DNA of 63,136 nt from a virus (taxonomy: Duplodnaviria; Caudoviricetes): positions 1-63,136 of the IMG/VR virus record IMGVR_UViG_3300036770_007416; one strand, written 5' to 3'. The notes under the pieces were generated by a model. The model did no database searches, was not told the DNA's origin, and worked only from the letters and a program-made list of their open reading frames with translations. This document shows positions 19,399-42,020 of this stretch, piece by piece. The first letter of the stretch is position 1, and each line of letters begins with the position of its first letter. Made by a program: the position numbers and the translations under genes.

Positions 19399-19402
19399 TC
19401 TT

Positions 19403-19954
19403 TTAGTTTTTTTTGAGGATTGTTAGTCCGTTGTTATTTTGGAAAACTTCATGTATTTGCCAATTTGTATTTTCTGAAAGGAATTCTTCGATTGCTGGCC
19501 ATATACCAACTTCGTTTGGTGTTTCCCCTTTAGTTCTGAAAGTTTCTGTATCGTGAAAAACCAAATATTTTTTTACTTTGTTGTGATGAACTTCTAACTC
19601 CTTTTTTATTTGGGGGTAAGTGTGTAAAGTATCTATAAAAAGTAGGTCACACTCGGGAATTTCGACAGTTCTACTGTCGGAAAGAATAAATTCATAATCT
19701 ATGTTTTTTTCTTTTGCAATCGATTCTACTAAGGGTAAATCAACTGAGTTGTACTCTGATGGGTGCTTATAATCAACAGAGATTAATTTTTTTGGGTTTC
19801 CAAGTAAGAATGCCCATGTAGAAACGATGGTTCTTACTCCCATCTCAACGATGGTTTCACACTCTTCAGAGTAACGCTTCAAAGTAGGTAGATGTTCATT
19901 TATATCACTTGAGGTTCCAACCTTAGTGTCGTATATGCTTTGTAATTGGTCCAT
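19403..19954 (-). CDS. class I SAM-dependent methyltransferase (Methyltransf_24-like)
   Basis: VEMGVRTIVST, DLLFIDTLHTY, FHDT, NNNGLTIL. Confidence 0.8.
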   Translation of the reverse strand: MDQLQSIYDTKVGTSSDINEHLPTLKRYSEECETIVEMGVRTIVSTWAFLLGNPKKLISVDYKHPSEYNSVDLPLVESIAKEKNIDYEFILSDSRTVEIPECDLLFIDTLHTYPQIKKELEVHHNKVKKYLVFHDTETFRTKGETPNEVGIWPAIEEFLSENTNWQIHEVFQNNNGLTILKKN

Positions 19955-20652: not shown

Positions 20653-20655
20653 TTT

Positions 20656-21366
20656 TCAGATTTTTTTATACGGAGTTTTATTTCTTATCAAAGTCACTGT
20701 ATTTGTTACATTTGACATGTTGACCTTGTGGTCGTTCAAAGGATTTGATTCATTATAGGTATACAAAACATCTGAAACGAATCTAAAGTGTTGCATTCCC
20801 GACATTTCCAACATTGGGTACATAAACGACAAATCACCCGCCACGGACCAATACTCACCGAATTCATCTTTTAAATCTTTTTCTTCGATTTTTTTCCACA
20901 ACCATGATTTCCAAGTTCTAAGATGTGACAAGGTAAATGCCTGTTTTCTTAAATTCTCGATGGTGTTTGGGGGAGTTGCAAAACCAGGTCTTCCATTATG
21001 ATATGAAAATGAACCACTTGTCATCCAAACGTCCTCTGAATTGTAAATTTCATTAACTTTGGTGAAAACTTTGGAATTTGGTAACCAATCGTCGCCGTCG
21101 ACTTCCACACACACTTCATTATCATCTAAGTTCATATGCCTGATTACTAAATCGTAATTACCAGGTTGATACAACTTTTTTTCGTTTTTGATAAGAATAA
21201 ATCTCGAATCTCCCTTGATAGTTTCTTCGATTTTTTTCTGAGTTTTATCTGTGGATAAATCGTCAAAAATATAACAGGTAAAATCTTTATACTGTTGAGA
21301 CATAATACTGTAAAGACATTTTTCAATATATTCTTCACAATTATATGCGGTTGTCAAAATAGTCAT
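20656..21366 (-). CDS. glycosyltransferase family 2
   Basis: TTAYNCEEYIEKCL, IFDDLSTD, VDGDDW. Confidence 0.85.
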   Translation of the reverse strand: MTILTTAYNCEEYIEKCLYSIMSQQYKDFTCYIFDDLSTDKTQKKIEETIKGDSRFILIKNEKKLYQPGNYDLVIRHMNLDDNEVCVEVDGDDWLPNSKVFTKVNEIYNSEDVWMTSGSFSYHNGRPGFATPPNTIENLRKQAFTLSHLRTWKSWLWKKIEEKDLKDEFGEYWSVAGDLSFMYPMLEMSGMQHFRFVSDVLYTYNESNPLNDHKVNMSNVTNTVTLIRNKTPYKKI

Positions 21367-23000
21367 TAGGACAGTATTTTTAGAAATTCTTCTTTTATTT
21401 GCTTTGCAACATTTTCTGAATAGAACTTTTCGATGTCGGATGGTGGCGATGTTTTTTCTTTAGAAATTATATCTCCACTGTCATTTACTTTGTAAATCCA
21501 ACTATCTTTTCCGCTCATCCAACTTTCAATTGTTGTTCTTCCTAATTGTATACCAGCGGTTTCAAAAGCACCTTCAATAAAAGGTTTCAAATTCCAAGTT
21601 GGGGGGAAATGTTTGATAATTGGGTTCTCTAAATAACTTTTCAAATAAATAGATTTGTCCTCACCCACTAACCAAAGTTCTTTACCTAAGGAGAACGCAT
21701 ATTCAGCAGCATCTTTGATTGCCAATTCTCTCAAATAATCCACTGTTCCGACAAAAAGAATGTATCCACCTTCATTTTTGGGTAAAGTGGGAAACTTACT
21801 TTTGTCGACAGGATTGTAAATCACAGAGATTTTATCTTCAGGTATTTCAAATTTATTTATTAAATGGTCTTTGATTTCAGGTCTAATTGCCACATAACGT
21901 TTAATTGAGTCATGAATAATAGGGTCTTCTAACTCAATTACTTCAGAGTGTATTGTTGCAATTTTGTCAATATTAGGGTATAAATTTATTATCCTTTCAG
22001 CAACGGGTTTATGTTGTATACTGATAATGTCAAAATCAACTTCTCCAATTTTGTATAGTGTTGTTGGTTTGGACAATTCTGGTTTTCCATCGGGGCCCAT
22101 AACCTGCCATTTTCCGTCTCCCATTTTGAACCCTGGGGATTCTTCAAACGATAAACATTTGATACCCTCTTTACGTGCTAAATCCGTGAGTGGACCACCA
22201 ATTTGTGATAAAACAGTCACTTGACAATTTTCTTTTTGAAGTGCCTTTGCTAATTCATAAACGTAAACTTCTGAACCAGTAAAGGTTCTAAAAAACATAC
22301 ACGAAATCAAAACATTCATTTTCCTTTTTGGGTCGAAAGGAATTTTAATTGGTAAATTGTTTTTATATTTTTCAACGAAAATTTGTCTGTTATCTTCCCA
22401 TTGTTGGTTCGTTTGTCCAATAGATTTGTGTGTAATTCGAATGTTGGTAAAAACACCAATTTTTACTCCTTCCAAGTAGTTTTCAACACAAAAAGGTAAA
22501 TCATAAAAATGAAACCCTTTGAAATCTTCAACAAAATTTTTCTTGATTCTTTGTTTGTGTACCGCAATAAAGACACCATCAATAATTGCAACTTCTCGAA
22601 TATCATTTCCTTGATTAGGAGAATATCTACTTTCCCATTTTTTACCACCACTTTCATGATTGACAATTCCAATCATTTTTCTCCTTTCTTCCCACCACAA
22701 TCCTGATTGGGGAAGGTTTGGTGTCCCTGCAACCCCAAGAATTCCGAAATCGTTTTTTTCGAAATTTCGTAAAATTTTGGAGTACCAAGCAGGGGTATCG
22801 AAATAAATATCATCATGACATAAAATCACAATGTCAGATTTTGACTCACTCAAAATTTCATTGTAAACCTCCGAAAGAGACTTATCACCATTGTTAATTT
22901 TTTCAATGACCTCTACATATTTTGGGTTACCCGAAGATTTCTTAAAATATTCTATAAGTTCGGGTTTGTGTGATTTTGTTGAATACCCTATTGTAATCAT
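21366..23000 (-). CDS. bifunctional glycosyltransferase (GT-A-like N-domain + GT-B/GT4-like C-domain)
   Basis: N: LCHDD, IDGVFIA, GFHFYD. C: TGSEVYVYELAKAL, VIYNPVD, GRTTIESWMSG. Confidence 0.8.
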   Translation of the reverse strand: MITIGYSTKSHKPELIEYFKKSSGNPKYVEVIEKINNGDKSLSEVYNEILSESKSDIVILCHDDIYFDTPAWYSKILRNFEKNDFGILGVAGTPNLPQSGLWWEERRKMIGIVNHESGGKKWESRYSPNQGNDIREVAIIDGVFIAVHKQRIKKNFVEDFKGFHFYDLPFCVENYLEGVKIGVFTNIRITHKSIGQTNQQWEDNRQIFVEKYKNNLPIKIPFDPKRKMNVLISCMFFRTFTGSEVYVYELAKALQKENCQVTVLSQIGGPLTDLARKEGIKCLSFEESPGFKMGDGKWQVMGPDGKPELSKPTTLYKIGEVDFDIISIQHKPVAERIINLYPNIDKIATIHSEVIELEDPIIHDSIKRYVAIRPEIKDHLINKFEIPEDKISVIYNPVDKSKFPTLPKNEGGYILFVGTVDYLRELAIKDAAEYAFSLGKELWLVGEDKSIYLKSYLENPIIKHFPPTWNLKPFIEGAFETAGIQLGRTTIESWMSGKDSWIYKVNDSGDIISKEKTSPPSDIEKFYSENVAKQIKEEFLKILS

Positions 23001-24334: not shown

Positions 24335-25549
24335 TTATTTAATTAGACTTTTGTAAAACTCAGCACGGTCAAGGGTAACAATATTCAAATCATATTTTTT
24401 ACTAACTGTCTCGTATAATCTTTCTCCCATGTCTTGTACCAAGTTCGGATTCTTGAGAAGTTTAATAATAAACTTGGACCAGTCGGAGTGATTTCGACTC
24501 TCACTAACAAGAAGCGCGTTACCATCAACAAATTCACCGTTTTTCAAACAATGCTTTAAGTCAATGGTGTAAGGACCCAAATCTGTTGCAATCAGAGCTT
24601 TTTTGTAAAATCCCGCCTCAATGACTTTGAGTTGTGACTTCATCCTGTTGAACATATGATTTTTAATCGGTGCTAAAGATACGTCAAATTTTGCGTAGTT
24701 CTTCGCGTAAGACGTTACAGGAAGAGTCCAAACTCTCCTGTAGGATTCTCCAAGATATTCGGGATACTCCTCTTGAGTATATTTTTTCAGAACTTTTTCG
24801 TATTCAGGACTTACGTAATTGTAATTCTGTGTAAAGATTTTCTCATACGACGCCCAAACTGTTTCCTCGGGTTTAATGGGACGTTTTTTGTGTTCACCCG
24901 TTTGAGCATTAATTTCTGTGATTGTACCCCTCGTATCAAAACCACAAAGAACAAATTGTAATTCCTTGTAGTGTTGACTCAACTTTGCAAATGAACTATC
25001 TAAAAGTTGTAAATCACCCAAGTGGGAAGAACCACCTAACCAACCAACTCGTAATTTATCCGACTCTGTTGTTTTTTCTTTGAATTGTGCCTCGTCAGGG
25101 TTAATTGCGTTTGGAAACACAAAAACATTTTTATTGTACTTTCTAATTTCGTCCGCAAACAAAGGGGTTGTGGTAGTAACGTAATCTGATTGTTTGATAC
25201 TATTAACGATTTTTTCGTTAATTTTGTTGTACATAATTACATCATAGATTGGGTGGTCCTTAGTAGGATTCCAATAATCGTCCATGTCACAAACAGTAAT
25301 AATGCCCAAACTTTTGAGGGTTTCGACTAACTCAAACGACTTTTCGAAATCATTAGTAATACTACGGTGATAAACAACAATTTGAAATTTCTTGAAGAAA
25401 TTCAAATCATTTAAGGGAGGATTCAAATCTATTTCTACATGAAAATCCTCAGGAAATTTATTTTGTAAAAAAATGTGGGGTTCTATGGAACGAAATTTTC
25501 CAACACCAAATCTGTCTGATGGTACTACAAGTACATTAATTTTTGACAT
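24335..25549 (-). CDS. glycosyltransferase, GT-B/GT4-like
   Basis: GVGKFRSIEP, DMDDYW, GWLGGSSH, DVSLAPI..FNRMKSQLKVIEAG. Confidence 0.8.
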   Translation of the reverse strand: MSKINVLVVPSDRFGVGKFRSIEPHIFLQNKFPEDFHVEIDLNPPLNDLNFFKKFQIVVYHRSITNDFEKSFELVETLKSLGIITVCDMDDYWNPTKDHPIYDVIMYNKINEKIVNSIKQSDYVTTTTPLFADEIRKYNKNVFVFPNAINPDEAQFKEKTTESDKLRVGWLGGSSHLGDLQLLDSSFAKLSQHYKELQFVLCGFDTRGTITEINAQTGEHKKRPIKPEETVWASYEKIFTQNYNYVSPEYEKVLKKYTQEEYPEYLGESYRRVWTLPVTSYAKNYAKFDVSLAPIKNHMFNRMKSQLKVIEAGFYKKALIATDLGPYTIDLKHCLKNGEFVDGNALLVSESRNHSDWSKFIIKLLKNPNLVQDMGERLYETVSKKYDLNIVTLDRAEFYKSLIK

Positions 25550-28208: not shown

Positions 28209-31200
28209 ATGGCATACCAAAATATCAATCAGTACAATTATAGGAAGATTGGCCTGAAACCCGTCAATGAAATTTTAGATTTCTGTTTGGCAGATGATGC
28301 TCGGGATTTCAACCAAGAAGTTATTTTTTCGCCACTTTTGATTGCGGAGAATGATGGAAATAGGATGCCTTTTAATTTTGATTTTAATTCTACAGGTACA
28401 ACCATATCTCCTGTACGACATGAGTTTTTATACGACACAATTGTTTCTCAAAATTATTACAATCCATCAGATATCGACCCGAATTTTTGTGCAAAAACCA
28501 CTGAGATTTGTGACGTTGGTTTAACAGGTATCGACAATGGATTAACAAAAGAAATGTCGGGTATTACAATGACCGCATACACAGGTCTTTATACCACAAC
28601 AGCCGAAACTTTTAATAGATACATCTACGACAGAAGGTTCAAGATGCACCCAATCTCAGGAAACACCACACCTCAAAATCGTTTGTGGAATGACAATTCT
28701 TATTCTTACGGGCTTTCTTATGTAAATGCTGGTGGTGACATCGGAACAGTTGCTCAACTTAACGGTGGATTTTATCAAGGTTTTTACAAGCTTCAAGGTT
28801 ATGACTACCAAGTATTCCCAACTCGTATGAGTCAAGGGTGGACGGTAGAAATGATGTTGAAATATAGGTTTACTGGTGATACAAACGTTGGACTCAACGC
28901 TCGTTATCCTGAAAACAAAGGTATTTTCTTTTTCTTAGGAACAAGAGCGGAAAACAAATTTTATCACTATGCCGATGGCCACCCGTCTTCTGACACAGGT
29001 TACACACGAGTAACTTCAGGACTTACTTGTATGCACACTTGTGGGTGTTCTGTAACGGGAGGTACAGGTGCTGATTGTATTCCTGTCTACCAACCATCAG
29101 GTGTAACATCATCGAATTGTAATTGTGGTTGTCCGTGTAGTTGTTCCACTCAAGCATCTGTCAAGGAATTAGACCCATTATATGATGGAGTATCAAACGC
29201 TATGTCGATACGTTTTAGTGGTGATACTGGTAATCCAAGAGTTTGTGTAAAAGAATATCTAATCACGGGAAGCTGTATCCCATCAGGAACTTGTTTGACA
29301 GGGACTAGTTTTGTGACAGGAGTTACAACCGTTGAGTGGTGTTCGACTCGTGGTATTTTTGAAGATTGTAAATTTACCCCCTACATTAATTTGGAACACT
29401 GGGTTCAGATTGATGCGGTGTTTGAACGGAACGCCTACTTGGATTGTAAAGACCTTGATTATTTGGGGGGTTTAGGTCAAATAGAACAAGAGGTCTTCAC
29501 TGCCACATCGGCCAATAATAGTATCAGTTTAGTAACTGACCCAATTACTCACGAAGAAGGATATTCGGGATACAAACCAGCCAAAACAACACAGGTTGAA
29601 ATCACCGACTTGTGGTTGGAGGAAAGGAAATACAGACTCGGGACTCTGAAAATTTTCGTCAACGGTAAACTCCTTATGGTCTGTGAAGACTTTGAGGAAA
29701 TTATACCAAGACCTCTTAACACATACAAGGAGAGACAAGTTGGTGTTCCATTTAATATTTCGATTGGTGGAGGAACACAAGGACTAAAAGACAACTTAAC
29801 TTTTTCAGGTGGATGTCCTCCTGAAATTTCGGAAATAGTCTATCAACAAGACCCCGAGTGTCTGACAACTGAAGATTTGGATAATACAATTTATTCAGGA
29901 CTGTCAACAAACATTTACCTCGAAGAAATTTTCGGAGGTAGTTTTATCGGAGCCATCAGTGCATTCAGAATGTATGTTGACCCATTAGATGCCTCTGAGG
30001 TTAAACACAACTTCAGACTGCTTCAAAACAAATATGGACTTCTTGACCCTGATTGTCCGAACTGTGCTATTATTGTTCCCGCGAATGACCTCACTTATCT
30101 TGTTATTCCTGACGAAGATTTAGTTTATTTAATCATTCCTGATGATGATTTGGGTTACATTTTGATTCCTGAAAACGACTTAACATATGAAGAGTTGTTA
30201 GGGAATATTGTTGATGTGCAGTCTAATTATTCTCAGGGGTCGATTGTTGGAGATTTTTCTGCAGTTGGTAGTAGAGTTTTCGATGTACCAACAACCATCA
30301 GTTTCACAGTACAACTTGACACACTTACGGGGTCTCCAATAAATGAGGAGGTCAATATCTTTATAGATACGGGTGAGATTTCGGGAACAACTTCTAATGA
30401 AGTCGGTGGTAATTACCGTGATTTGTCTCTTTCGGGTTCTTACTTAAGTCTTAGCGCAAATACTTCAGGTCAGAGTATTAATATTTTCTCATTTACTACA
30501 GGTATAACTTTCGAAGTTCTTGAGACGGTTACTCCAACCCCAACGGTTACAAACACGCAAACTCCAACTAACACGCCTTCAAACACCCCATCAGTAACAA
30601 CTACTCAGACCCAAACAAATACTCCATCAAATAGCCAAACACCAACTAACACACCTTCGAACACACCATCGGGTACTGTAACTCCAACTCAGACCGCAAC
30701 AACTACAATGACACCAACCCCGAGTGCGACAGTTGGGTTGACACCAACCGCAACTGAATCACCAACACCAACTCAGACATTAACTCCAACAAATACTGAA
30801 ACGCCAACAAATACCCCGAGCGAAACACCAACAAATACTCCAACCTCAACTTTTACTCAAACCCCAACTCAAACTTCAACTGAAACCCCAACTAACACAC
30901 CCACATCCACAAACACTGAAACTCCAACCGAGACTCCTACGAATACACCAACTGAGAACCCAACAAATACACCAACCCATACGGCAACTCCAACTCCAAC
31001 ACCAACTTTACCGAATGAAGGATTCTTACTTCAAGAAAATTTGTTTATGATTCTTCAAGATGATGGTTACGGAATTTTGATTGAACCAATTCAAGCAACA
31101 CCCACGCTGACTCCAACACACACTCAAACACCAACACCAACTGTTGGGACAGTGACAATTGAGTTAGAAGGTGAATATTCACCTGGGTCAATTAATGCTC

Positions 31201-32966
31201 TTTACATTGCAACAGCAAACACAACATTGGATTCGGATGTTGAAATATTTTTTGTTGATGTATTAGGTACAACAACAGGTTCTCCAATTTCTCTGAGCGG
31301 TTCCGTTATTATAACTTCAGGTTCAAGTGTTGGAACGAGTTATTATACAATTGCCGGTGATTACGCTGAATTAAACAAAGTTTCAAACTTTAATGAAATT
31401 ACTTATGAAGTTACTGGCTCAAGCATAAATGTTCAAGTTAATACCAATTCTGTTTTTGATGTTACACCTACCCCAACAAACACATCTTCAATCACTCCAA
31501 CACCAACTATAACACCAAGTTCAAATATCGTAACTTCAGGTTTGATAATTCAACTTGATGCCAATAATACAACGAGTTACCCGGGTACAGGTACTTCAGT
31601 ATTCAATTTACAAAGTGGTTCATACACACACACATTAACAAATGCACCATTTACAATTTTGAATGGTATCAAATGTTTTGATTGTAATGGTCTCAGTACA
31701 ACAATTTCAGTTCCTAATGATACAGGTCCAATACTACCTACGACAGGCTATACTTACATAACTTGGGCAAGAATTAAAACAAGTTCTTCAACATACAGAA
31801 CTCTATTTAGAACCTTACCTTCGGACCACCCTATACTAGTTGATATTCTAACTGATAATTTAGGTTTTTGGAATAACGAGACCTCATCATTTACTGACTC
31901 GGGATATGATGTAACACCAATTGAAGACGTTTGGGTTCAATATACAGTTGTTGGTGATTCTTCAAGTAGTATATTCTACATTAATGGTGCACAAGTTGGG
32001 ACTGTTGCTTTGGGGGCGGGTGGAAATACCCATTGGGCTTGGGGTTCAATTGTTGGACAACCTTTCGGATATGTTGCTAACATGTATTTTTACAACAGAA
32101 AACTTTCCTTGGGTGAAATTACACAACAATACGATTTCTTAGCACCAAGATTTGTTGAACCATCTCCAACACCTACCAACACTCCCACTAACACTAATAC
32201 CCCTACTGTTACACCAACAACATCCCCTACGGTTACCCCAACAATTACACCAACACCATCATCAACACCTGCGATTGTAACAAATAATTTACAATTCTAT
32301 GTTTCACCTGAAAGTTACATTGGTTCAGGAACTGTTTGGAATTCCTCCGCTGGTTCAACAGATGCGACTTTATCAGGAAGTCCCACATACAACGTATTGA
32401 GTGGATTCACATTTGACGGTAGTACTTCTTATGGTAGAATACCAAGTGTGAATGGAGTCACGAATTTTACAAACACACAACAATATACTGTCGAAGTGTG
32501 GTTTAATCCTTCAAATGGACAACCAAACTCAGGTGAAGCGGAATTGTTGGAGAAGTGGAATTTGAATAACGAATCAAGATACCCATATACTATTAGATTT
32601 AATGAAGGGGGTAGTAGTATGTTAGTTGCTGTTTTTGATGGTACAGGTCCAGGTTTCCGTAACGTTTCAGTTTCTGGTTTCCCTGTAAACACATGGAGAC
32701 AGATTGTTGCGGTATTTGATTTTGTCGCTGGAACCCTCACAGTTTATAATAACGGTGTTTCGGGTGGTTCAACTAGTTTAGTTGGTGTGGGACAAGTAAG
32801 TAACACAAGTCCTGTAGGTATTGCGGGTAGAGTCGCTCAAGGTACAGGGGCTTTGCAAGTTCCATTCAAAGGTACCGTCGGAATTATAAGAATATACAAT
32901 GCACCATTGACGGCGTTTCAAGTTTTACAAAACTTCAATGCCGATAAAACCAAATACGGACTCTAA
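28209..32966 (+). CDS. large virion fibre/decoration protein with ConA/LamG-like domains and mucin-like Thr/Pro tracts (1585 aa)
   Basis: Two C-terminal LamG-like domains (YINGAQV..YNRKLS; [19 protein letters not shown]), an N-terminal LamG-like region, T/P tracts and a late motif. Confidence 0.75.
30084..30195 (+). repeat. 10-aa tandem repeat ([10 protein letters not shown]-type, ~3.5 copies)
   Basis: [37 protein letters not shown]. Confidence 0.8.
30525..31013 (+). repeat. mucin-like Thr/Pro tract (~160 aa)
   Basis: Degenerate TPT/TNTP/TETP repeats. Confidence 0.9.
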
Positions 32967-32981
32967 TATTTATAAAATAAA

Positions 32982-33623
32982 ATGCCAAATTTACCCATAT
33001 CCCAATTACCTGACATCTCAACTTCGAGTGCTGGAAGACTTATCTCAACAGGAGAATTTGCCGTTGCCCAAGATGGTACAACATATAAAGTTCCAAGTTC
33101 AGGTCTAAACCCCTATCCTGTTGTTTACGGATTGTTTTCTCAAACAGGAAATAGTGTAACCGTAAGTGGTACTACTTCAGAAACGACAATATTGGGAAGT
33201 GGAACCGGAACACTGAGTGTACCTGCAAATGGTTTTTCAGTTGGTGATAGTTTTCAGTGTATTATCGGTGGAATTTTGGACAATACAAATGATACTCTAA
33301 CAATCAGACTGAAGACTGGCTCTGTTATTCTTGCTGAGAGTAGCGCTTTTGACCCATCATCAGATGAAGATATTTTCTTTATGAACGTATACTTTACAAT
33401 AAGGGCAATCGGTACCACGGGTGTTGCATCAATATCAACTCATGGAAATTTCCAAGTAGTTAAAGGTAACGGACAAGTTTATGGGACCGCGTTTCAAACA
33501 ATAAATAATTCCACTTTCGACACCACAATTCCAAATACTTTGGATATTACAGTTCAATTTAGCAGTGATAACCCATTGAATTTGATTTATAGTGATTTAT
33601 TTGTTTTGAACAAGATATTTTAA
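32982..33623 (+). CDS. putative tail fibre/appendage protein
   Basis: N-terminal PISQLP...VAQDGTTYKV motif of fibre proteins; TATTTATA upstream. Confidence 0.55.
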   Translation: MPNLPISQLPDISTSSAGRLISTGEFAVAQDGTTYKVPSSGLNPYPVVYGLFSQTGNSVTVSGTTSETTILGSGTGTLSVPANGFSVGDSFQCIIGGILDNTNDTLTIRLKTGSVILAESSAFDPSSDEDIFFMNVYFTIRAIGTTGVASISTHGNFQVVKGNGQVYGTAFQTINNSTFDTTIPNTLDITVQFSSDNPLNLIYSDLFVLNKIF

Positions 33624-33641
33624 TTTCTTAACAAAAACCTC

Positions 33642-34208
33642 ATGTCTTGTTTATACTACAGAATAACCAATTATAATTCCATCCAAGATGGTTATTATAA
33701 GTGGACAGGTTGTACTGGTAGTGTAAACATTACTCAAATATCCCCTTTATTTTCTGAAAGTATTTGTGCAGAATCAATTACAGTTGAGTTGTATGGTGCA
33801 CCTTTGACAATAGTTAATATGGGTCCTTGTCCATCTTCAACACCAACACCCACGGTTTCACCTTCAGTCACTCCAACAGTGAGTCTTAGTGCGACTCCAA
33901 CGACACAAACCCCCACACCAACAAATACTGTTACACCATCTGTAACCCCTTCTCCCGTTTATGTGAGAAATTTGAGAACGGGTGGATATTTTCAAGATGT
34001 CTGTCAACAAATAAATCAATTTGGTGGGTTTGCCGCTAACGTCACGGTGTATTCAACAAAACCATTCAACCAATTAACAGTCGGAGACCATGTATTTGGT
34101 AACCGAGAGTTAACGATACCACCAATCGGAGCAAACTTTACAATTTCTGATGGGGTAAAAATTATTCAGATAAGTGGAACACTAATAATCAATACCGGTG
34201 TTTGTTGA
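33642..34208 (+). CDS. Cys-module/Thr-Pro protein (188 aa)
   Basis: Four-Cys N-module, ~40 aa T/P/S linker, two-Cys C-module. Confidence 0.7.
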   Translation: MSCLYYRITNYNSIQDGYYKWTGCTGSVNITQISPLFSESICAESITVELYGAPLTIVNMGPCPSSTPTPTVSPSVTPTVSLSATPTTQTPTPTNTVTPSVTPSPVYVRNLRTGGYFQDVCQQINQFGGFAANVTVYSTKPFNQLTVGDHVFGNRELTIPPIGANFTISDGVKIIQISGTLIINTGVC

Positions 34209-34243
34209 TAAAAACTAATTCGAGATTTTGAGTATTTATTGTT

Positions 34244-36142
34244 ATGGCTTTAGGTATAAGAATTTTAAGTGAAAATTTAAGCGGACAAACTGTTAACGTT
34301 ACTTACTTACCATCTTCAGGTGGAACAATCGATTTGGGTACTCAAGTTATCCCGTTCAATTACTTAAGTTCTTACTACTTTGGACTCTACGAGGTTTACT
34401 CACCAACATATGGATATACCTACACCTTGGAAGTACCAGGTCCATCACCTTCTCCTACGCCCACTTCAACAGCAACACCAACGCCAACGCCAAGTGTAAC
34501 GGTAACAAATACACCAACAGGAACGCCAACATCAACACCTTCAACAACACCAACTAATACTCCAACTGAAACCTCAACACCCACACCGAGTCCTTCAAGA
34601 GCTACGTTCTTGGTATATTCGGGTACATCGGCCATCGATGCTTGTGAAAGAATTGTATCTACGGTACTTTACGGAGACAACAGTCAATTTGATTTGAACA
34701 CCCAATTCTTCAACACACCAACAGGACCATCAACAATTGATTTAACAGGATATTACAGTTATAACTCGTTGATTGTTGAATTGAACTCTTTGGGTGTGGA
34801 GATAGGTGGCTACAGTATTTGTCCTACAGTAACAAGTACAGTTACACCAACTCAAACTGAGACGCCAACACAGACCCCATCACAAACGCCAACACAAACG
34901 ATTACTCAAACACCAACAAGAACACAGACTCCAACACCTTCAATAAATTACTATACGTATTTTGTTGGTTCAGGTTCAACTTTTGATGATGCATGTTATA
35001 ACTTTGTGGGTTCACCATTCAACATTTATGCACCTTTATCTGCGGGTATCGGACCAAACGTGTTCGAAATTGTTTATGAAACAGGTGGTAATCCACCAAC
35101 AAACCCAGTTGGGGACGGATTCTATTCTAATGGAATCTACGTATTTGAAGTAAGCGGAGGTCAAGGTGAAATTATTTTCTTGGACCCAAATGGTTGTTTA
35201 GATGCACCAACACAAACACCAACTCAGACTCAGACTCAGACTCCAACAAACACTCAGACTCCAACACAAACTCAAACACCGACTAATACTTCAACACAAA
35301 CACCGACAGCAACACAACCAAATAGAACTGCCTTTAGCGTATACAGTGGTACATCAATTATCGAATCTTGTTCTGAGGTTAATACCCCAGTGACAGTATA
35401 TGGTAACAATTCAGTATGGGGAGATGTCACCGCAATTTTGAATGTACCTACAGGTCCCGCAACGATTGACATGACAGGGTTCTATAATTTCGGAGGAATT
35501 TCAATCGAAGTTGATTCCACGGGACAGTTGGTTTCGGCCTCTTTATGTATAACTCAAACACCAACACATACACCAACTCCGACAACAACACCATCTGAAA
35601 CACCAACTCAAACACCTACCGAAACTCCGACAAATACCCCGTCTGAGACACCAACTCAAACACCTACAGAAACACCTACCGAAACTCCGACAAATACCCC
35701 CTCTGAAACACAAACTCAAACACCTACGGGAACACCTACAGAAACCCCAACTCAGACACCAACAGAAACACCCACGGGAACACCTACAGGAACCCCAACG
35801 CCAACTCCGACAATACCAGCTACAGTCCAAATTAAAAACGAAAATACTAATGGTGCAATTATAAATTCTATTGGGGCCGCTGGTAATTGGGCATTCTCTC
35901 CCACTCCGTCTTTCCCTATTTTATTTGGAGAAACTGGTTTTAGTTATTTGACTCAAAATATTTTAAGTGGTGACATACTTACTTACGATATACAAGGAAC
36001 TAGCGGACCAACTTTTACTTTGACCATCCTGAAGAATGGTATCTTTGTAGATAGTATTACTAACACAGTTCCGTATGCAGACGCTTATGTATTTACAGAA
36101 AGTTTCTTGATAACGGATATATTAACAATAACTCTTACTTGA
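34244..36142 (+). CDS. mucin-like virion protein (632 aa): four Thr/Pro tracts and three two-Cys modules
   Basis: T/P tracts at about 34441-34597, 34823-34942, 35206-35320 and 35551-35818; TATTTAT 4 nt before the ATG. Confidence 0.75.
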   Translation: MALGIRILSENLSGQTVNVTYLPSSGGTIDLGTQVIPFNYLSSYYFGLYEVYSPTYGYTYTLEVPGPSPSPTPTSTATPTPTPSVTVTNTPTGTPTSTPSTTPTNTPTETSTPTPSPSRATFLVYSGTSAIDACERIVSTVLYGDNSQFDLNTQFFNTPTGPSTIDLTGYYSYNSLIVELNSLGVEIGGYSICPTVTSTVTPTQTETPTQTPSQTPTQTITQTPTRTQTPTPSINYYTYFVGSGSTFDDACYNFVGSPFNIYAPLSAGIGPNVFEIVYETGGNPPTNPVGDGFYSNGIYVFEVSGGQGEIIFLDPNGCLDAPTQTPTQTQTQTPTNTQTPTQTQTPTNTSTQTPTATQPNRTAFSVYSGTSIIESCSEVNTPVTVYGNNSVWGDVTAILNVPTGPATIDMTGFYNFGGISIEVDSTGQLVSASLCITQTPTHTPTPTTTPSETPTQTPTETPTNTPSETPTQTPTETPTETPTNTPSETQTQTPTGTPTETPTQTPTETPTGTPTGTPTPTPTIPATVQIKNENTNGAIINSIGAAGNWAFSPTPSFPILFGETGFSYLTQNILSGDILTYDIQGTSGPTFTLTILKNGIFVDSITNTVPYADAYVFTESFLITDILTITLT

Positions 36143-36205
36143 TGAATTTTTCCCGAAAAAACAAATTTAAGCTCAGGACTAATATTTATAATATAAAAAA
36201 CAACA

Positions 36206-37414
36206 ATGGCTTGTAGAAAATATATTTTGACCAACAACACTTCATCGAATGGAGTTTATTCTTATCAGGAATGTTCAAATCAACTGTGGATTTATGACAT
36301 TCTCTTACCAGCCGGTTCAGTCAACAACATTTGGTTGACAGAAGGAACTTTTAACACCGCAATGCCTGCAATCGTTACTTTTACGGACTTGGGACCTTTT
36401 CCATTCGTCGTTACACCAACATCTACCGTAACAAGTACTCCAACGCCAACAATGACCCCAACTCAAACTCAAACACAAACTCCAACCCAAACACAAACTC
36501 CAACTCAAACCGAAACACCGACCCAAACCTCAACACAAACACCTTCGGCCACCACTACCCTTACAGCATCACAAACTCAGACACAAACTCCAAGTCAGAC
36601 CGAAACACCAACCCAAACCCCAACTCAAACTCAGACACAAACTCCGAGTCAGACAACCACCCAAACTCCAACAAATACACACACTTCAACTCAGACCATG
36701 ACTCCAACTCCGAGTGTAACACCACCAATAAGGACCGCATTTTTAGTTTACCCAGGTTCAACGTTAGTTGAATCTTGTAGTCAAACATTATCACAAATCA
36801 CTGTTTACGGAAATGATGCTGTTTGGGGAGACGTGACAGCAGTGCTTGATGTACCAACTGGACCAGCAACTATTAATATGACTGGTTTCTACAACTTCAA
36901 TGGTATTAGTATCGAGGTTGATAGCACGGGTCAATTCGTTAACATTTCTACATGTGTAACACCAACACAAACAACAACAAACACATCAACTCCAACGGAA
37001 ACACCAACCAACACACCGACACCAAGTGAATCACCGACTCAGACTCCTACATCAACTGAGACACCGACTCAGACTCCTACATCAACTGAGACACCGACTC
37101 AGACGCCAACTCAAACCGCAACACCAACTGAAACAACAACTCAGACACCAACACCAACACCAACAATATCTTATTGGGTTTATACTTTGACATCAGGAGC
37201 AACCGCGAACGATGCGTGTACAAGTGTAACAACATATACAATTTATTCGAGTTCATCGTTCCCTCAAGGACCAACAGTTGGGGAATTCTTATTCCTTGAT
37301 TCAGCACTGACTAATCCTGTAAATAACGGATGGTGGGGAGACGGTTCTTCCGCATTCGAAACTGATGACACCATAGGTTCACCAGGACAAATATTAACTG
37401 AAGACCCTTGTTAA
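36206..37414 (+). CDS. mucin-like virion protein (402 aa)
   Basis: T/P/Q tracts at about 36410-36727 and 36957-37165 between Cys modules paralogous to those of the upstream gene; TATTTATA at 36183. Confidence 0.75.
   Translation: MACRKYILTNNTSSNGVYSYQECSNQLWIYDILLPAGSVNNIWLTEGTFNTAMPAIVTFTDLGPFPFVVTPTSTVTSTPTPTMTPTQTQTQTPTQTQTPTQTETPTQTSTQTPSATTTLTASQTQTQTPSQTETPTQTPTQTQTQTPSQTTTQTPTNTHTSTQTMTPTPSVTPPIRTAFLVYPGSTLVESCSQTLSQITVYGNDAVWGDVTAVLDVPTGPATINMTGFYNFNGISIEVDSTGQFVNISTCVTPTQTTTNTSTPTETPTNTPTPSESPTQTPTSTETPTQTPTSTETPTQTPTQTATPTETTTQTPTPTPTISYWVYTLTSGATANDACTSVTTYTIYSSSSFPQGPTVGEFLFLDSALTNPVNNGWWGDGSSAFETDDTIGSPGQILTEDPC
37032..37104 (+). repeat. perfect 30-nt tandem repeat (2.4 copies)
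   Basis: caccgactcagactcctacatcaactgaga twice plus a partial copy; encodes PTQTPTSTET. Confidence 0.9.
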
Positions 37415-37420
37415 ATTTAC

Positions 37421-37450
37421 GACCCCTCTTTTGAGGGGTTTTTCTTTTTC
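37421..37450 (+). terminator. intrinsic terminator
   Basis: ACCCCTC-TTTT-GAGGGGT followed by TTTTCTTTTT. Confidence 0.85.
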
Positions 37451-37503
37451 TGATATTCAGTTTGTAATCTTATTGTTTATTTTTTTTGTAAAAAATTGGA
37501 TTA

Positions 37504-38751
37504 ATGAAAATATTTGTTCAGATTGCCTCTTATAGAGACCCCCAACTTGTTCATACGTTAAAGAACATGATTGAAAATGCTAAACGACCAAAAAACCTAA
37601 GAATTGGTATTGCAAGACAGTTTAGCCCCGACGATAAATTTGATGATTTAACCGAATACGAAAAGGATAAAAGATTCAGAATTCTGAATATCCCATACCA
37701 AGAAGCGCAGGGTGTTTGTTGGGCACGTAACTTAGTACAACAACTTTATGAAGGGGAGGAGTACACACTTCAAATTGATTCTCATATGAGATTTGCCCCG
37801 AATTGGGACGATGAGATGATTAAAATGATTAAGCAACTTCAGAAGAAAGGTCACAAAAAACCTCTGTTGACTGGTTACGTTTCTTCATTTGACCCTGACA
37901 ATGACCCGGCAGGAAGAGTTCAAGAACCTTGGAGAATGGTGTTTGATAGATTTATACCTGAGGGTGCAGTATTCTTTTTACCTGAGACGATACCAGGTTG
38001 GAGAGATTTGAAAGAACCAACTACTGCAAGATTTTATTCGGCCCACTACGCATTTACATTGGGACAATTTTCCAACGAAGTTCAACACAATCCGAATTAT
38101 TATTTTCATGGTGAAGAAATTTCGATTGCTGCTAGAGCATATACTTGGGGTTATGATTTGTTCCACCCCCATAAGGTTTTGATTTGGCACGAATACACAC
38201 GTAAAGGAAGAACCAAACAATGGGATGATGACAAACAATGGGTTGACCGAAATAATAAATCACACCTCACCAACCGAAAGTTGTTTGGTATGGACGGTGA
38301 AATTCAAGAGGGTCATGATGGACCATTTGGATTTGGAACTGAAAGAACGTTGAGAGATTACGAAAAGTATTCAGGTTTGTTGTTTGAAAAAAGAGCGGTA
38401 CAACAATATACTTTGGACAAACATTATCCACCAAACCCCTACAACTACGAAACTGAAGAAGATTGGAAGAAAGACTTTGCTCAAGTTTTCAAACATTGTA
38501 TTGATGTAGGTTACCCTAGTGTGCCTGAAACTGATTATGATTTTTGGGTTGTTGCTTTCCACGGAGAAGATGATTCCACATTATTCAGAAAAGACGCCGA
38601 CAAGGCAGAGATTTCAAGAATGATGAATGACCCTGACAAATATTGTAAGATTTGGAGAGAATTCCAAACCACGCAAAAACCTAAGTATTGGGTTGTGTGG
38701 CCTCACTCAGAATCTAAAGGTTGGTGTGACCGTTTAACAGGAAATTTGTAA
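37504..38751 (+). CDS. GT60 polypeptide alpha-GlcNAc transferase (Skp1 Gnt1 / protist mucin-initiating ppGlcNAcT-like)
   Basis: IFVQIASYRDPQL, GVCWAR, LQIDSHMRF (DxH), YFHGEEI, WHEY. Confidence 0.85.
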   Translation: MKIFVQIASYRDPQLVHTLKNMIENAKRPKNLRIGIARQFSPDDKFDDLTEYEKDKRFRILNIPYQEAQGVCWARNLVQQLYEGEEYTLQIDSHMRFAPNWDDEMIKMIKQLQKKGHKKPLLTGYVSSFDPDNDPAGRVQEPWRMVFDRFIPEGAVFFLPETIPGWRDLKEPTTARFYSAHYAFTLGQFSNEVQHNPNYYFHGEEISIAARAYTWGYDLFHPHKVLIWHEYTRKGRTKQWDDDKQWVDRNNKSHLTNRKLFGMDGEIQEGHDGPFGFGTERTLRDYEKYSGLLFEKRAVQQYTLDKHYPPNPYNYETEEDWKKDFAQVFKHCIDVGYPSVPETDYDFWVVAFHGEDDSTLFRKDADKAEISRMMNDPDKYCKIWREFQTTQKPKYWVVWPHSESKGWCDRLTGNL

Positions 38752-39479
38752 TGGACTTAAATAATATTTACAAATACGTTGTCAATTTAGATAGAAGAAC
38801 TGACAGGATGGAATCCATAAAATTTGAAATGGATTACATTGGTTGGGAGTATGAAAGGTTTAGTGCAATTGACACTAATAGTCACGGTGGTTGTTCTTTG
38901 TCACACATTGAAATAATAAAACAAGCAATCTCGAAAGGGTTGGATGAAGTGATGGTTATTGAGGACGATTGTTCGGTTATGCCCTATGCAAAGTCTTTGA
39001 TAGAAAAAATTACCTCAGATACTGAAGGTACTGAATATGGTATTTTGAACTTATCACCAACACTTAATCGTCCTGTGAATAAAAGTGAACGACATAGTAC
39101 TTTATTGGATTTAACAAATTTCCCACCAATGATGGAACATCATAGAGGAATTTTTGCAACAAACATGATTGTCTATCATCATAGTATTTACGATGAGGTT
39201 TTGAAATTGGAACCAAGAGAATTTTTGGGATACTATGCAATAGATGATTTCATTTATCAATTTGTTATGAGTAAACACCAAAGTTATGCACCTGTTTTAC
39301 CAATTGCACCACAAATAAGTGATTGGTCGGATGTATCTCACGGTAACTATAATAATTTTTACACTCAAACTTATAATTGGAATCAATATTCTCCAATAAA
39401 AATTCCTTCCGAATTTCTCAATCTTGGATACAATATTCAAACTAAACAAGAAAAACTTTTTCACGATATTTCTTTATGA
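38751..39479 (+). CDS. glycosyltransferase family 25 (beta-galactosyltransferase-like)
   Basis: VVNLDRRTDR, RFSAID, GCSLSH, VIEDD, IDDF. Confidence 0.8.
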   Translation: MDLNNIYKYVVNLDRRTDRMESIKFEMDYIGWEYERFSAIDTNSHGGCSLSHIEIIKQAISKGLDEVMVIEDDCSVMPYAKSLIEKITSDTEGTEYGILNLSPTLNRPVNKSERHSTLLDLTNFPPMMEHHRGIFATNMIVYHHSIYDEVLKLEPREFLGYYAIDDFIYQFVMSKHQSYAPVLPIAPQISDWSDVSHGNYNNFYTQTYNWNQYSPIKIPSEFLNLGYNIQTKQEKLFHDISL

Positions 39480-40357
39480 AAACTAAATTTATTACATGTA
39501 TTTACAGTGACCTAAACGGTACTGAATTAGGAGGAAGACCTGGCAGAGGAGGACATTATAGATGGAGTTTAATGTCCTTACTTAAAATGACTGATGCAGA
39601 TTTTGTTTGTTACACTTCTGATAGAGAGTACGAATCACTCATTGAGTTTTTTTATAATATGCACAATGTTTCACCTCAAAAATTGGAAATCAAGGTTTTT
39701 GACATTACAAAAACACGACACGCAAAAAGACTCAATGAAATAAAACAAGTCGATTTGATTAAGTGGGGTGATAGATGTTTAGAAATACAATATGCGAAAT
39801 TTGAATGGTTTGATTATGAAGATGGTTCGTATGACAACTATTTTTGGATTGATGCTGGTCTATCACATACAGGTTTAATTCCAAACAAATATTTGATTGG
39901 CACCCATCCTGAAAGGAGATATTACGATTCAACTTTGTTTAACAATGAATTTTTGAAAAACTTAATAGAATTCACTGGTGATAAATTTTTCATGATAGCA
40001 AAAGATAATGAAAGAAATTATTGGTCAGGCACTGTAGACCCCAAATGGTACAATCAATACGACAGGTCCTTACACGTTGTTGGGGGTTTGTTTGGGGGAA
40101 AAAGAGAACAATGGAGACAAATGGTAGATTTATTTGACAATTATCTGTCACAAATAATGGAAGTAGATAGTCAACACCCTTATGAGGAATTGATTATGAC
40201 TTTGATATTTTTCAATCATCCTGATTTGATTAGTAAAAAGTTATTTGACGTTTGGTGGTCTCCTGACTCTGGCATAAGTGGTTTACAAGAAGATTTCTTT
40301 ATTATTAACAGAAGTTTCTATAAAATATTTGAAGAGTTTAATGGAATATATGAATAA
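39476..40357 (+). CDS. HtrL/YibB-like putative glycosyltransferase
   Basis: YFWIDAGL, VGGLFGG, YEELIM; paralogous to the N-domain of the next gene. Confidence 0.6.
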   Translation: MKTKFITCIYSDLNGTELGGRPGRGGHYRWSLMSLLKMTDADFVCYTSDREYESLIEFFYNMHNVSPQKLEIKVFDITKTRHAKRLNEIKQVDLIKWGDRCLEIQYAKFEWFDYEDGSYDNYFWIDAGLSHTGLIPNKYLIGTHPERRYYDSTLFNNEFLKNLIEFTGDKFFMIAKDNERNYWSGTVDPKWYNQYDRSLHVVGGLFGGKREQWRQMVDLFDNYLSQIMEVDSQHPYEELIMTLIFFNHPDLISKKLFDVWWSPDSGISGLQEDFFIINRSFYKIFEEFNGIYE

Positions 40358-42020
40358 GGTAACTTTTGTAACGGGACTTTGGAACATAAAAAGGGACCAA
40401 CTCTCAGAGGGTTGGTCTCGCTCATTTGAGCATTATTTGGAAAAGTTTGACCAACTTCTAAAAATAGAAGCAAACCTTATCATATTTGGTGAAAAGGAAT
40501 TAGAAGATTTTGTGTGGGAAAGAAGAAATCGTGAAAACACACAGTTTATTGTTCGTTCAACAGATTGGTTTGTCAATGACTTCCACACAAAAATACAATC
40601 AATTAGAACAAACCCCGATTGGTACAATCAATCAGGTTGGTTACCAGAATCAACCCAAGCAAGACTTGAGATGTACAATCCACTTGTTATGTCTAAAATG
40701 TTTTTACTTAATGATGCTCGAATCTTTGATAATTTTGATTCATCCCATCTTTTTTGGCTTGATGCCGGTATAACAAACACTGTACATCCTGGTTATTTTA
40801 CTCACGATAAGATTCATGAAAAATTTGACAAGTTGTTTAATAAATTTGGATTTATTGCGTTTCCTTATGATGCCGAGAGAGAAATACATGGATTTTCATA
40901 CCCCAAAATAAATCAATATGCGGGTGGAAATGTAAAGTTGGTTTGTCGGGGAGGAATTTTTGGTGGTACTAAAGATTCTATCAGTGATGTGAACGGGATT
41001 TACTACAATGTGATGAACCAAACACTGAACGATGGTTACATGGGTACTGAAGAATCTTTGTTCAGTATTCTTCTCTACAGACACCCCGATATTTTTGATT
41101 ACTACGAAATTGAGTCCAACGGACTAATTGGTAAATTTTGTGAGGATGTGAAAAACGATACTCATAAAGTAAAAAATATACAAGGAAAAACATCTTATTC
41201 AGATTTGAAGTTTGACAATAGTGCTCTATATGTAATAACATTTAACAGTCCAAAACAATTCGAGACACTCTTGAAATCCATGGAGTTATATGATAGAAAC
41301 TTTATTGATAAACCCAAAAAGTTTTTATTGGATAACTCATCAGATTTGACAACTACGGAAAGGTACATTGAATTGTGTGAGGAATATGGATTTGAGCACG
41401 TAAAGAAAGATAATTTAGGAATTTGTGGTGGTCGTCAATGGATTGCAGAACACTCTCACGAAAACAAATTTGATTTTTATTGGTTCTTCGAAGATGATAT
41501 GTTTTTCTACGGAGGACAGGACCAAGTTTGTAAAAACGGATTTATTAGAAAAATTGATGATTTGTACAACAAATCTCTTCAGATTACGAAGAATCACTCC
41601 TTGGATTTTCTGAAACTTAATTTTACAGAATTTTACGGAGACAATGGTACCCAATGGTCATGGTACAATGTACCCCAAAACGTCAGGGAGGAATATTGGC
41701 CCGAAAAACCTACATTACCAGTTCAAGGTTTGGACCCGAATGCTCCACGAACGAAGTTCAATGAAATCAGGTCATACAAAGGTGTTGCATTTGGAATTGG
41801 TGAAGTTTATTATTGTAACTGGCCACAAGTTGTCACAAAGTATGGTAACGAAAAAATGTTTTTGACAACAAAATGGGACAGACCTTTTGAACAAACATGG
41901 ATGAGTTACATTTATCAAGAAACTAAAAAAGATAATATCAAACCAGGTTTGTTGATGGCAACACCCACCGAACACGATAGATTTGAATTCTACGATGGAA
42001 AACTAAGAAAAGAGTCCTAA
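40350..42020 (+). CDS. HtrL/YibB-like domain fused to a GT-A-like domain
   Basis: TFVTGLWNI, SKMFLL, FWLDAG, GGIFGG, TEE; C-domain LLDNS, NLGICGGR, FFEDD. Start placed at MNKVTF. Confidence 0.65.
   Translation: MNKVTFVTGLWNIKRDQLSEGWSRSFEHYLEKFDQLLKIEANLIIFGEKELEDFVWERRNRENTQFIVRSTDWFVNDFHTKIQSIRTNPDWYNQSGWLPESTQARLEMYNPLVMSKMFLLNDARIFDNFDSSHLFWLDAGITNTVHPGYFTHDKIHEKFDKLFNKFGFIAFPYDAEREIHGFSYPKINQYAGGNVKLVCRGGIFGGTKDSISDVNGIYYNVMNQTLNDGYMGTEESLFSILLYRHPDIFDYYEIESNGLIGKFCEDVKNDTHKVKNIQGKTSYSDLKFDNSALYVITFNSPKQFETLLKSMELYDRNFIDKPKKFLLDNSSDLTTTERYIELCEEYGFEHVKKDNLGICGGRQWIAEHSHENKFDFYWFFEDDMFFYGGQDQVCKNGFIRKIDDLYNKSLQITKNHSLDFLKLNFTEFYGDNGTQWSWYNVPQNVREEYWPEKPTLPVQGLDPNAPRTKFNEIRSYKGVAFGIGEVYYCNWPQVVTKYGNEKMFLTTKWDRPFEQTWMSYIYQETKKDNIKPGLLMATPTEHDRFEFYDGKLRKES

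Follow-up and report, generated by a model that had tools for sequence, protein, structure and literature searches.

Why would a tailed phage place a glycosyltransferase of the GT60 family directly behind a row of putative virion proteins filled with threonine and proline? The question is raised by IMGVR_UViG_3300036770_007416, a stretch of 63,136 bp from a member of the Caudoviricetes (hereafter the window, meaning the whole stretch analysed), which CheckV estimates to be 21% complete. An initial annotation of this DNA had described nine genes on the plus strand, five of them ahead of the GT60 gene and three further glycosyltransferase (GT) genes behind it, and all nine open reading frames (ORFs) are found at the positions it gave (Table 1). 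It had also advanced the idea of a mucin-type O-glycosylation system encoded by the phage itself. Here the families, predicted folds and genomic distribution of these genes are brought to bear on that idea. That the phage O-glycosylates its own mucin-like threonine/proline (T/P) tracts is a proposal to which sequence data give about an even chance, and it is quite probable that the module glycosylates proteins or peptides of some kind.

At the enzyme level, the GT60 translation matches the Pfam profile PF11397 with 229.3 bits (cut-off 21; E 1.3e-67), in agreement with the family assignment first made from the signatures IASYRD, WAR, QIDSH and GEE, all of them readable in the protein. Residues D92, H94, H229, E204, E205 and R75 are invariant in an alignment of 33 GT60 homologues (35-49% identity), and this invariance suggests that D92, H94 and H229 may form a DxH...H metal site. 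Members of the family are polypeptide alpha-N-acetylglucosamine (GlcNAc) transferases according to the available portions of two publications (PMC9472816, PMC8724618), in which TcOGNT1, a GT60 enzyme, makes GlcNAc-alpha-1-O-Thr on the mucins of Trypanosoma cruzi. The group is large: 7141 database proteins match at E <=1e-5, the relatives comprise 4565 cluster representatives at E <=0.001, and 157 viral contigs carry them.

Although no GT60 structure has been solved and the GT60 sequence retrieves no PDB entry at E <=0.01, its AlphaFold model (pLDDT 95.4, pTM 0.91) permits a fold comparison, which is one of a predicted structure and aligns residues 1 to ~330. The top Foldseek matches in the PDB are all mucin-type polypeptide N-acetylgalactosamine (GalNAc) transferases (ppGalNAc-Ts), namely human T1, T2, T4, T7, T10 and T12, Drosophila PGANT9 and Toxoplasma T3. 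Likewise, the first 29 rows of VIA-align are all ppGalNAc-Ts (Z 19.3-22.4, root-mean-square deviation 3.3-3.9 Å over 265-283 residues), and other enzymes of the GT-A fold begin at Z 18.0. In a viral structure library, the closest models are labelled 'Glycosyltransferase, GlcNAc' and come from uncultured tailed phages, Megaviridae and Pandoravirus. The modelled fold thus agrees with the earlier suggestion of a mucin-type initiating enzyme, and GT60 is proposed to be an initiating polypeptide N-acetylhexosamine (HexNAc) transferase. The beta-rich domain that follows the catalytic part (residues ~330-415) is conserved in the clade. No fusion of GT60 to a mucin was detected, P0138 being the only one among the best 150 GT60 representatives with a T/P tract (23 residues). 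A complex prediction of GT60 with a 50-residue T/P stretch of p402 gave a score of 0.00 with the mark at 0.32, which counts neither way.

The putative acceptors are encoded just ahead of the enzyme. A residue was counted as T/P tract if it lay in a 12-residue window of which T+P made up 66% or more, and on this count p1585, p188, p632 and p402 hold 218, 35, 226 and 170 such residues, respectively (649 in sum); under a stricter count that also asks for at least two T and two P per window, the values are 215, 35, 226 and 167 (643). The several hundred residues claimed at the outset are therefore real, at about 645, and they are confined to these 4 of the 71 window ORFs of at least 80 aa. Shuffling the residues of each protein 200 times produced means of 7, 2, 50 and 55 and maxima of 44, 19, 109 and 107 in the same order, far below the real counts, so that these are long tandem Thr/Ser plus Pro tracts of the mucin type. 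The repeat unit is T-P-T-x, with Q, N, E, S or G as the usual x. At the DNA level it corresponds to degenerate repeats of 12-nt period (65-82% matches), so the period has been maintained in the protein and does not stem from recent slippage. Among these proteins, p1585 is a candidate acceptor of glycans and a candidate fibre or adhesin. It matches phrog_8510, a 'virion structural protein' family, and its laminin-G (LamG) end together with the preceding T/P tract aligns to ORF350 of phage XacN1 (28% identity, E 2e-5); its first 770 aa found no match in phage records by tblastn. G001, the closest long relative of the window (294,914 bp, 98% complete), has counterparts of nearly all window genes, 29-85% identical, and encodes a p1585 homologue with a LamG/phrog_8510 match and another T/P ORF with a weak Hoc-like match. 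An ESM Atlas search with the ~75-aa module of p402 returned virus-only clusters and no known family. It was also observed that, of 10 proteins scanned (those of the window between 33642 and 37414 plus the T/P ORFs of G001), 8 have T/P regions matching phrog_15511; one existing phage protein family therefore already holds such tracts.

Enzyme and tracts are also tied by their arrangement across phages. Among the best 80 of the 157 viral contigs with GT60 relatives (76-92% identity), 25 loci with less than 3 kb upstream were set aside. In 50 of the remaining 55, a T/P ORF (on the same strand, with 40 or more T/P tract residues) lies upstream of GT60, whereas one lies downstream in only 9 of 79. 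T/P genes vary strongly in number and length across these loci and GT60 stays conserved. The longest tracts occupy 1300 of 1792 residues in one ORF of locus L060 and 844 of 1383 in another ORF; tracts of 1300 residues far exceed the length of a linker.

The pairing is also found in cultured phages. Within the phage collection searched, GT60 matches are restricted to XacN1 and Xoo-sp13 (Xanthomonas) and to CM1 and RAS14 (Stenotrophomonas), at 46-48% identity. These phages have in common with the window only GT60, p580, p293 and a few common phage genes, and the family-B DNA polymerase (PolB) of the window has no match there; the XacN1 group is therefore another lineage with the same module. In XacN1, the GT60 is ORF334 (47.5% identity) and the p580 orthologue ORF330 (41%). 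T/P ORFs number 15 of 758 in XacN1 and 14 of 485 in RAS14, as opposed to 1 of 373 in Moby (Stenotrophomonas; 30 residues, weak) and 0 of 426 in BUDD (Xanthomonas), both of which are devoid of GT60. Those of XacN1 include ORF369, 370 and 372, which adjoin tail sheath genes, ORF350 and the tandem ORF232-237. The latter, at 124048-133104, are six paralogues annotated as hypothetical, mostly of ~400-530 aa (one of 746), with T/P tracts of 71-134 residues. XacN1 virions contain glycoproteins according to the accessible text of PMC5852040. A search of the literature found no description of a phage GT60-mucin pairing, the closest being a brief remark in the XacN1 paper.

Which enzymes accompany GT60? 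A terminator-like hairpin precedes its start by 64 bases and places the T/P genes and GT60 in separate units, which makes an operon opening with GT60 reasonable. The GT25 gene and two HtrL-like genes announced behind it are real, the second-last of them, p293, by pairwise match to p580 only: p293 has no Pfam match and aligns to the HtrL half of p580 with 27% identity over 161 aa (E 5e-7), and homologues of it are present in XacN1 and RAS14. The N-terminal half of p580 matches HtrL_YibB (PF09612) with 65.1 bits (cut-off 24.1; E 9.9e-18). Its start is most likely the ATG at 40350 (556 aa) and not the GTG at 40278, because 19 homologues align from there. In a predicted structure (pLDDT 88), p580 consists of two GT-A-like domains, and its best PDB matches are LH3, LARGE1, mimivirus R699, K4CP, COLGALT1 and heparosan synthase 2 (Foldseek E 5e-11 to 1e-7), with low TM-scores. 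A p580 homologue sits beside GT60 in 73 of 80 viral loci and in 16 of the best 22 genome-contig loci compared, and accompanies GT60 in XacN1, in RAS14 and in G002, a further relative (219,475 bp, 88% complete) whose GT60 is 76% identical and which has little else in common with the window. GT25 and p293 are less constant. The constant partner of GT60 is thus the dual GT-A enzyme p580 and not GT25. GT60 and p580 would make up an invariable core that initiates and extends the glycan, surrounded by a changing periphery resembling that of serotypes. No transmembrane-like segment was found in the GT ORFs of the window, which fits the cytoplasmic system envisaged from the start.

The same neighbourhood raises the possibility that modified bases of the phage DNA are the substrate, glycosylated as a means of evading restriction. 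Phage GTs often act on DNA, as stated in the available part of 10.1101/2023.12.21.572611, the cluster has genes for a dUTPase, an exonuclease and PolB around it, and the C-terminal half of p580 shows a weak TAGT match (PF20691). At 17.1 bits this match falls below the cut-off of 27.5; moreover, no hydroxymethylase, TET or cytosine methyltransferase match appeared among the window ORFs scanned, and the GT60 fold is nearest to ppGalNAc-Ts. A Tet_JBP search of five genomes gave no match, but its controls were silent as well, so that it is uninformative. DNA glycosylation is regarded as very improbable.

GT60 homologues are also encoded by bacteria, and 80 loci were kept out of at least 560 confirmed stretches in species-representative genomes. 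T/P regions number 20 within 3.5 kb of GT60 and 10 at 3.5-10 kb (expected share 0.40; binomial p 0.0027), a roughly threefold enrichment of tracts beside the enzyme; 19 of the 80 loci have such regions. Beside GT60 (L125, L134) or ~2.5 kb from it (L113, L119, L155) there are genes for small T/P-tailed proteins whose N-terminus is signal-like, and larger T/P proteins abut it in L147, L150 and L164. In Burkholderiales, the 'T/P' matches near GT60 turned out to be VgrG-like proteins with PPPSET repeats instead of mucin-like tracts; these regions were kept in the enrichment count and belong mostly to its far zone. Near GT60, 14 of the 80 loci encode a PqqD-family domain (PF05402, above cut-off) and 13 a protein like HprK-related kinase A (E 1e-13 to 1e-23, below cut-off). 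PqqD domains present peptides to modifying enzymes, and this context therefore indicates polypeptide substrates. In Gemmatimonadaceae, a PqqD protein with a hydrophobic segment and a T/P/S/A-rich tail is encoded directly upstream of GT60 and a p580 homologue. A cassette of HprK-like, PqqD, GT60 and p580-like genes was observed at L097:7335-12267, L101:8455-12972 and 12 more genome loci, in Gemmatimonadota, Acidobacteriota, Alphaproteobacteria and other bacteria; no description of an HprK-like/PqqD/GT60 cassette was found in the literature. Three PqqD-like and three HprK-like queries gave no tblastn match (E <=0.01) in the window, G001, G002, XacN1 or RAS14.

Several of these observations weigh against T/P tracts as the target. 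The 50 of 55 reflects conserved gene order within one lineage and not independent events, because the loci are close relatives, and five loci (L048, L069, L070, L074 and L076) have no upstream T/P ORF. The same-host contrast amounts to two positive genomes, related to each other, versus two negative ones. In G001, eight T/P ORFs are spread over the genome and only one abuts GT60, and the T/P genes of XacN1 and RAS14 are likewise dispersed and not limited to its vicinity; their adjacency in the window may thus be a matter of gene order and not of function. None of the 343 ORFs of G002 is T/P-rich, and this genome has no notable S/T/P-rich region either: the missing 12% holds its acceptor, or GT60 and p580 act there on another kind of target, so that T/P tracts are not a requirement of GT60 in all phages. 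In 61 of the 80 bacterial loci there is no T/P tract within 3.5 kb. T/P linkers are common in unglycosylated proteins, and the late-region and virion labels given to these proteins draw on indirect signs, namely profile matches and gene context. The glycoproteins of XacN1 are not identified in the main text of PMC5852040, as far as it is available. Neither the donor sugar nor the acceptor residue can be predicted from sequence, and the oxygenases found in relatives leave Thr over hydroxyproline not established as acceptor. Co-occurrence, offered in the initial annotation as a check, is therefore borne out by the viral loci, XacN1, RAS14 and the bacteria; the independent distribution that it had named as a refuting outcome is seen in part, in G002 and in the dispersed genes.

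The first group of these points would be explained if GT60 and p580 glycosylated proteins or peptides but not T/P tracts in particular, the tracts being spacers and their adjacency accidental; capsid or tail loops or termini (as in mycobacteriophages), a small peptide or host proteins could then be the targets. Besides G002 and the scattering of T/P genes in complete genomes, the bacterial PqqD and HprK-like loci, mostly without a T/P tail, speak for this alternative. It accounts poorly for the polar placement of T/P ORFs, upstream and seldom downstream of GT60, for their enrichment beside bacterial homologues and for the fact that both T/P-rich Xanthomonadaceae phages are the GT60-positive ones, and known GT60 substrates include Thr-rich mucin repeats. 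It is thus considered unlikely, and glycosylation of the T/P tracts stays the preferred reading.

A second alternative keeps the tracts as target and changes the acceptor to hydroxyproline, formed by a prolyl hydroxylase before GT60 acts, as on Skp1. Thr had originally been favoured on the ground that no prolyl hydroxylase is encoded in the window. PF13640 oxygenases are indeed absent from the window, XacN1 and RAS14, but two such genes occur in G001 (70.8 and 55.8 bits) and one in G002, 4 kb from its GT60, and the window covers only ~21% of its genome, so that the argument fails. GT60 includes the Skp1 hydroxyproline GlcNAc-transferase, which adds to the case for a hydroxylated acceptor. On the other hand, XacN1 and RAS14 are T/P-rich and GT60-positive, PF13640 spans many 2-oxoglutarate oxygenases besides prolyl hydroxylases, and the G001 genes lie ~210 kb from GT60. 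Thr would be more likely than hydroxyproline as acceptor, because the T/P-rich XacN1 and RAS14 have no such oxygenase, and the hydroxyproline route appears improbable. With regard to the G001 genes themselves, one encodes a 620-aa fusion of PF13640 (67 bits) and GT2 at ~287.7-289.5 kb (L250:280-2142, minus strand), adjoining another GT2 gene, and the second is stand-alone (L252:1480-2067, minus strand). The hydroxylase-glycosyltransferase layout of the fusion resembles that of LH3 and mimivirus L230.

Further sugar genes occupy the minus strand of the window. Between 7.5 and 25.5 kb there are three GT2 genes, a GT2_5+GT4 fusion, two weak GT1-like genes, GT11, GT10 and two methyltransferase genes (Table 1). 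The Gmd, DegT and Fcl-like enzymes, whose equivalog scores are all below cut-off, fit the synthesis of a GDP-6-deoxy- or 3,6-dideoxyhexose, as had been supposed at the outset. G001 has no homologue of Gmd, the 3-dehydratase-like and Fcl-like enzymes, both methyltransferases and two GT2 proteins (window 13183-21366), and has the flanking genes; judged from this comparison, the region is a swappable sugar cassette of the kind seen in O-antigen loci. The fucosyl- and methyltransferases had been assigned a capping role, which is supported by the GT10 and GT11 homologues that abut GT60 in G001 and weakened by the absence of the Gmd, Fcl and methyltransferase cassette from that genome, the cassette hence being accessory. 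In G002, a 433-aa GT34 (GMA12/MNN10-type) protein with a weak methyltransferase match is encoded directly after GT60 (L076:11261-12562, plus strand), in place of GT25 and p293.

This content invites the thought that the GT genes build or remodel a polysaccharide, such as host lipopolysaccharide (LPS) or capsule, for instance to block superinfection, and bear no relation to phage proteins. HtrL/YibB and GT25 take their names from LPS-core loci; GT10, GT11, the GDP-deoxyhexose pathway and the sugar methyltransferases resemble O-antigen clusters, and p580 also resembles the polymerases K4CP and heparosan synthase 2. Such a role is hard to reconcile with GT ORFs free of transmembrane-like segments, with scanned window ORFs that match no Pfam flippase, polymerase or lipid-carrier priming transferase, with a GT60 fold nearest to polypeptide-directed transferases and with the glycoproteins that XacN1 virions are said to carry in the accessible text (PMC5852040). 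It is deemed as improbable as the hydroxyproline route.

From the sequences, families, predicted folds and co-occurrence described above, a donor, an acceptor, an order of steps and a virion location may be proposed for glycosylation of the T/P tracts. During infection and before assembly, soluble GT60 would add HexNAc to hydroxyls in the (T-P-T-x)n tracts of fibre or decoration proteins in the host cytoplasm, the sugar being, by analogy with the family, alpha-GlcNAc from UDP-GlcNAc. p580 would then extend the glycan with the assistance of GT25 and p293, and the strain-variable GT2, GT4, GT10 and GT11 enzymes, methyltransferases and GDP-deoxyhexose pathway would diversify or cap it. Virions would thereby bear mucin-like glycoprotein stalks that are stiff and resist proteases. 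A wider scheme is possible, though doubtful: GT60 and p580 could be the mobile two-enzyme core of an undescribed prokaryotic mucin-type O-glycosylation, used by phages of at least three lineages for stalks with a variable glycan or polymer, a serotype-like glycocalyx, and steered in bacteria by PqqD and HprK-like proteins to T/P-tailed substrates in the style of ribosomal peptides.

The source virus is a large freshwater jumbo myovirus of ~300 kb, of which the window is about one fifth, an estimate made because of the length and completeness of G001 and the window genes shared with it. The window encodes a tail sheath (phrog_23, E 2e-56), a T4 gp19-like tail tube, a T4-type baseplate protein, a family-B DNA polymerase, a helicase, PhoH, dUTPase and a Fe/Mn superoxide dismutase domain; a tRNA gene search of it found none. 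As for the host, the C-terminal 134 aa of p213 are 47% identical to a Flavobacterium phage elemoA protein adjoining a putative tail fibre gene (L085:1183-1827), and the closest GT60 homologues on genome contigs among the matches listed (67-71% identity) lie on low-GC contigs, probably phage contigs, that are binned with Saprospiraceae/Bacteroidia metagenome-assembled genomes. Together, these two matches hint at Bacteroidota. Separately, a glutamine-synthetase-like protein of ~350 aa is encoded in G001 (230.5 kb), G002 (158.6 kb) and a further genome, G003 (115 kb). The 'moraphages' are characterized, in the available part of PMC12619734, as freshwater phages of up to 307 kb with Bacteroidota hosts, glutamine synthetase and four core GT groups; the glutamine-synthetase trait is common to them and G001-G003, a likeness by description only.

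Table 1. Positions of the features discussed, numbered from the first base of the window.
Feature	Position	Strand	Remarks
GT2 gene and weak GT1-like gene	7492..9356	-	
DUF6165 protein, 128 aa	10941-11327	-	Between PhoH and sugar-nucleotide genes
HAD phosphatase/mutase-like domain fused to sugar-1-phosphate nucleotidyltransferase	11377..12741	-	
Gmd, GDP-mannose 4,6-dehydratase	13183..14157	-	TIGR01472, 401.7 bits vs cut-off 415
DegT-family enzyme (best match RfbH 3-dehydrase type) and Fcl-like reductase/epimerase	14958..17053	-	Below equivalog cut-offs
GT11 and GT10 (fucosyltransferase-type)	17038..18621	-	Homologues abut GT60 in G001
TylF-type sugar O-methyltransferase and CmcI-like methyltransferase	18628..19954	-	
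Two GT2 genes and GT2_5/GT4 fusion	19960..23000	-	
Weak GT1-like protein	24335..25549	-	Kept next to T/P region in relatives
p1585	28209..32966	+	~770-aa N-terminal part, six T/P tracts, two C-terminal Laminin_G_3 (ConA-like lectin) domains
p213	32982..33623	+	No T/P tract; Flavobacterium phage homologue beside putative tail fibre gene
p188	33642..34208	+	Two small domains linked by 35-residue T/P tract; kept in related loci
p632	34244..36142	+	Beads-on-a-string; four T/P tracts (226 residues) between ~75-aa Cys-containing modules
p402	36206..37414	+	Architecture as p632; three T/P tracts (170 residues)
Terminator-like hairpin	37421..37440	+	8 pairs (5 G-C), then T-run; parts T/P genes from GT unit
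GT60 glycosyltransferase	37504..38751	+	GT-A catalytic domain ~1-330, beta-rich C-terminal domain ~330-415
GT25-family glycosyltransferase	38751..39479	+	PF01755, 47.1 bits vs cut-off 24, E 3.3e-12
p293	39476..40357	+	Distant paralogue of HtrL-like half of p580
p580, two-domain GT-A enzyme	40350..42020	+	HtrL_YibB N-domain, C-domain with EDD motif
508-aa protein	47448-48974	-	Complete Fe/Mn superoxide dismutase domains, residues 37-224; C-terminal half unassigned
Tail sheath ORF, 1074 aa	52708-55932	+	Sheath profile covers residues 753-1072 only

Glycosylated virions are documented in few cases, in which the rules of site choice are largely obscure. Here, a recognisable enzyme of a mucin-initiating family is paired with acceptor-like tracts, in a GT60 lineage that is abundant in metagenomes and in a module that two cultured phage groups carry. 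If the proposal is true, the long T/P tracts in many jumbo-phage proteins would have an explanation, and virion glycans would vary between close relatives as O-antigens do, given that the cassette differs between the window and G001. It would also draw attention to an unstudied glycosylation cassette, related to this one, among Gemmatimonadota, Acidobacteriota and other bacteria, and bear on phage stability, grazing, immune recognition and the annotation of 'hypothetical' low-complexity phage proteins.

Comparison with known systems places the module between several of them. The nearest solved structures are those of the metazoan GT27 ppGalNAc-transferases, which align with Z 19-22 over ~270 catalytic residues and have a DxH motif, but belong to another CAZy family and are only 10-14% identical to the phage enzyme. 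A ricin-type lectin domain was not seen in the phage GT60, the VIA rows mostly spanning residues 1-330 and barely covering the C-terminal domain. The best fold matches of the p580 model, LARGE1, LH3, COLGALT1 and mimivirus R699, are dual-domain or protein-directed GT-A enzymes (Foldseek E 5e-11 to 2e-8), at 8-13% identity and with TM-scores of 0.23-0.26 that are low because domain orientations differ, and LARGE1 polymerises a disaccharide on a mucin-domain O-glycan, that of alpha-dystroglycan. The Skp1 pathway (prolyl hydroxylase and Gnt1) likewise employs a cytoplasmic GT60, and G001 and G002 encode PF13640 oxygenases; it modifies a single Pro of one protein, whereas tracts would be modified in the phage. 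The GT60 enzymes of protists (T. cruzi TcOGNT1, Dictyostelium) fall into the same CAZy and Pfam family as the phage enzyme. Their acceptors are Thr-rich mucin-like repeats, on which GlcNAc is then extended by further GTs, in the available text of PMC9472816 and PMC8724618. They work in the eukaryotic Golgi, while the phage GT60, of predicted activity, is soluble and has an extra conserved C-terminal domain of ~85 aa.

Among phages, XacN1 comes closest, with GT60 and p580 orthologues, a p293-like gene, 15 T/P ORFs and, in ORF350, the same end as p1585, a T/P tract followed by LamG. It differs in belonging to another lineage, without a PolB match and with Xanthomonadaceae hosts. Mycobacteriophages provide the second point of reference, and their system is not known to involve a mucin-like tract or a GT60. 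Their capsid and tail tube subunits reportedly carry the glycans at the C-terminus (Freeman et al. 2023). In the cytoplasm, the GTs of these phages put O-glycans on virion proteins, as cited in the accessible part of PMC12619734. As for XacN1, the text of Yoshikawa et al. 2018 (PMC5852040), in the part available, makes no mention of GT60 or T/P tracts. It is plausible that the system of the window joins two known kinds, the virion glycosylation of phages and the mucin glycosylation of GT60 enzymes.

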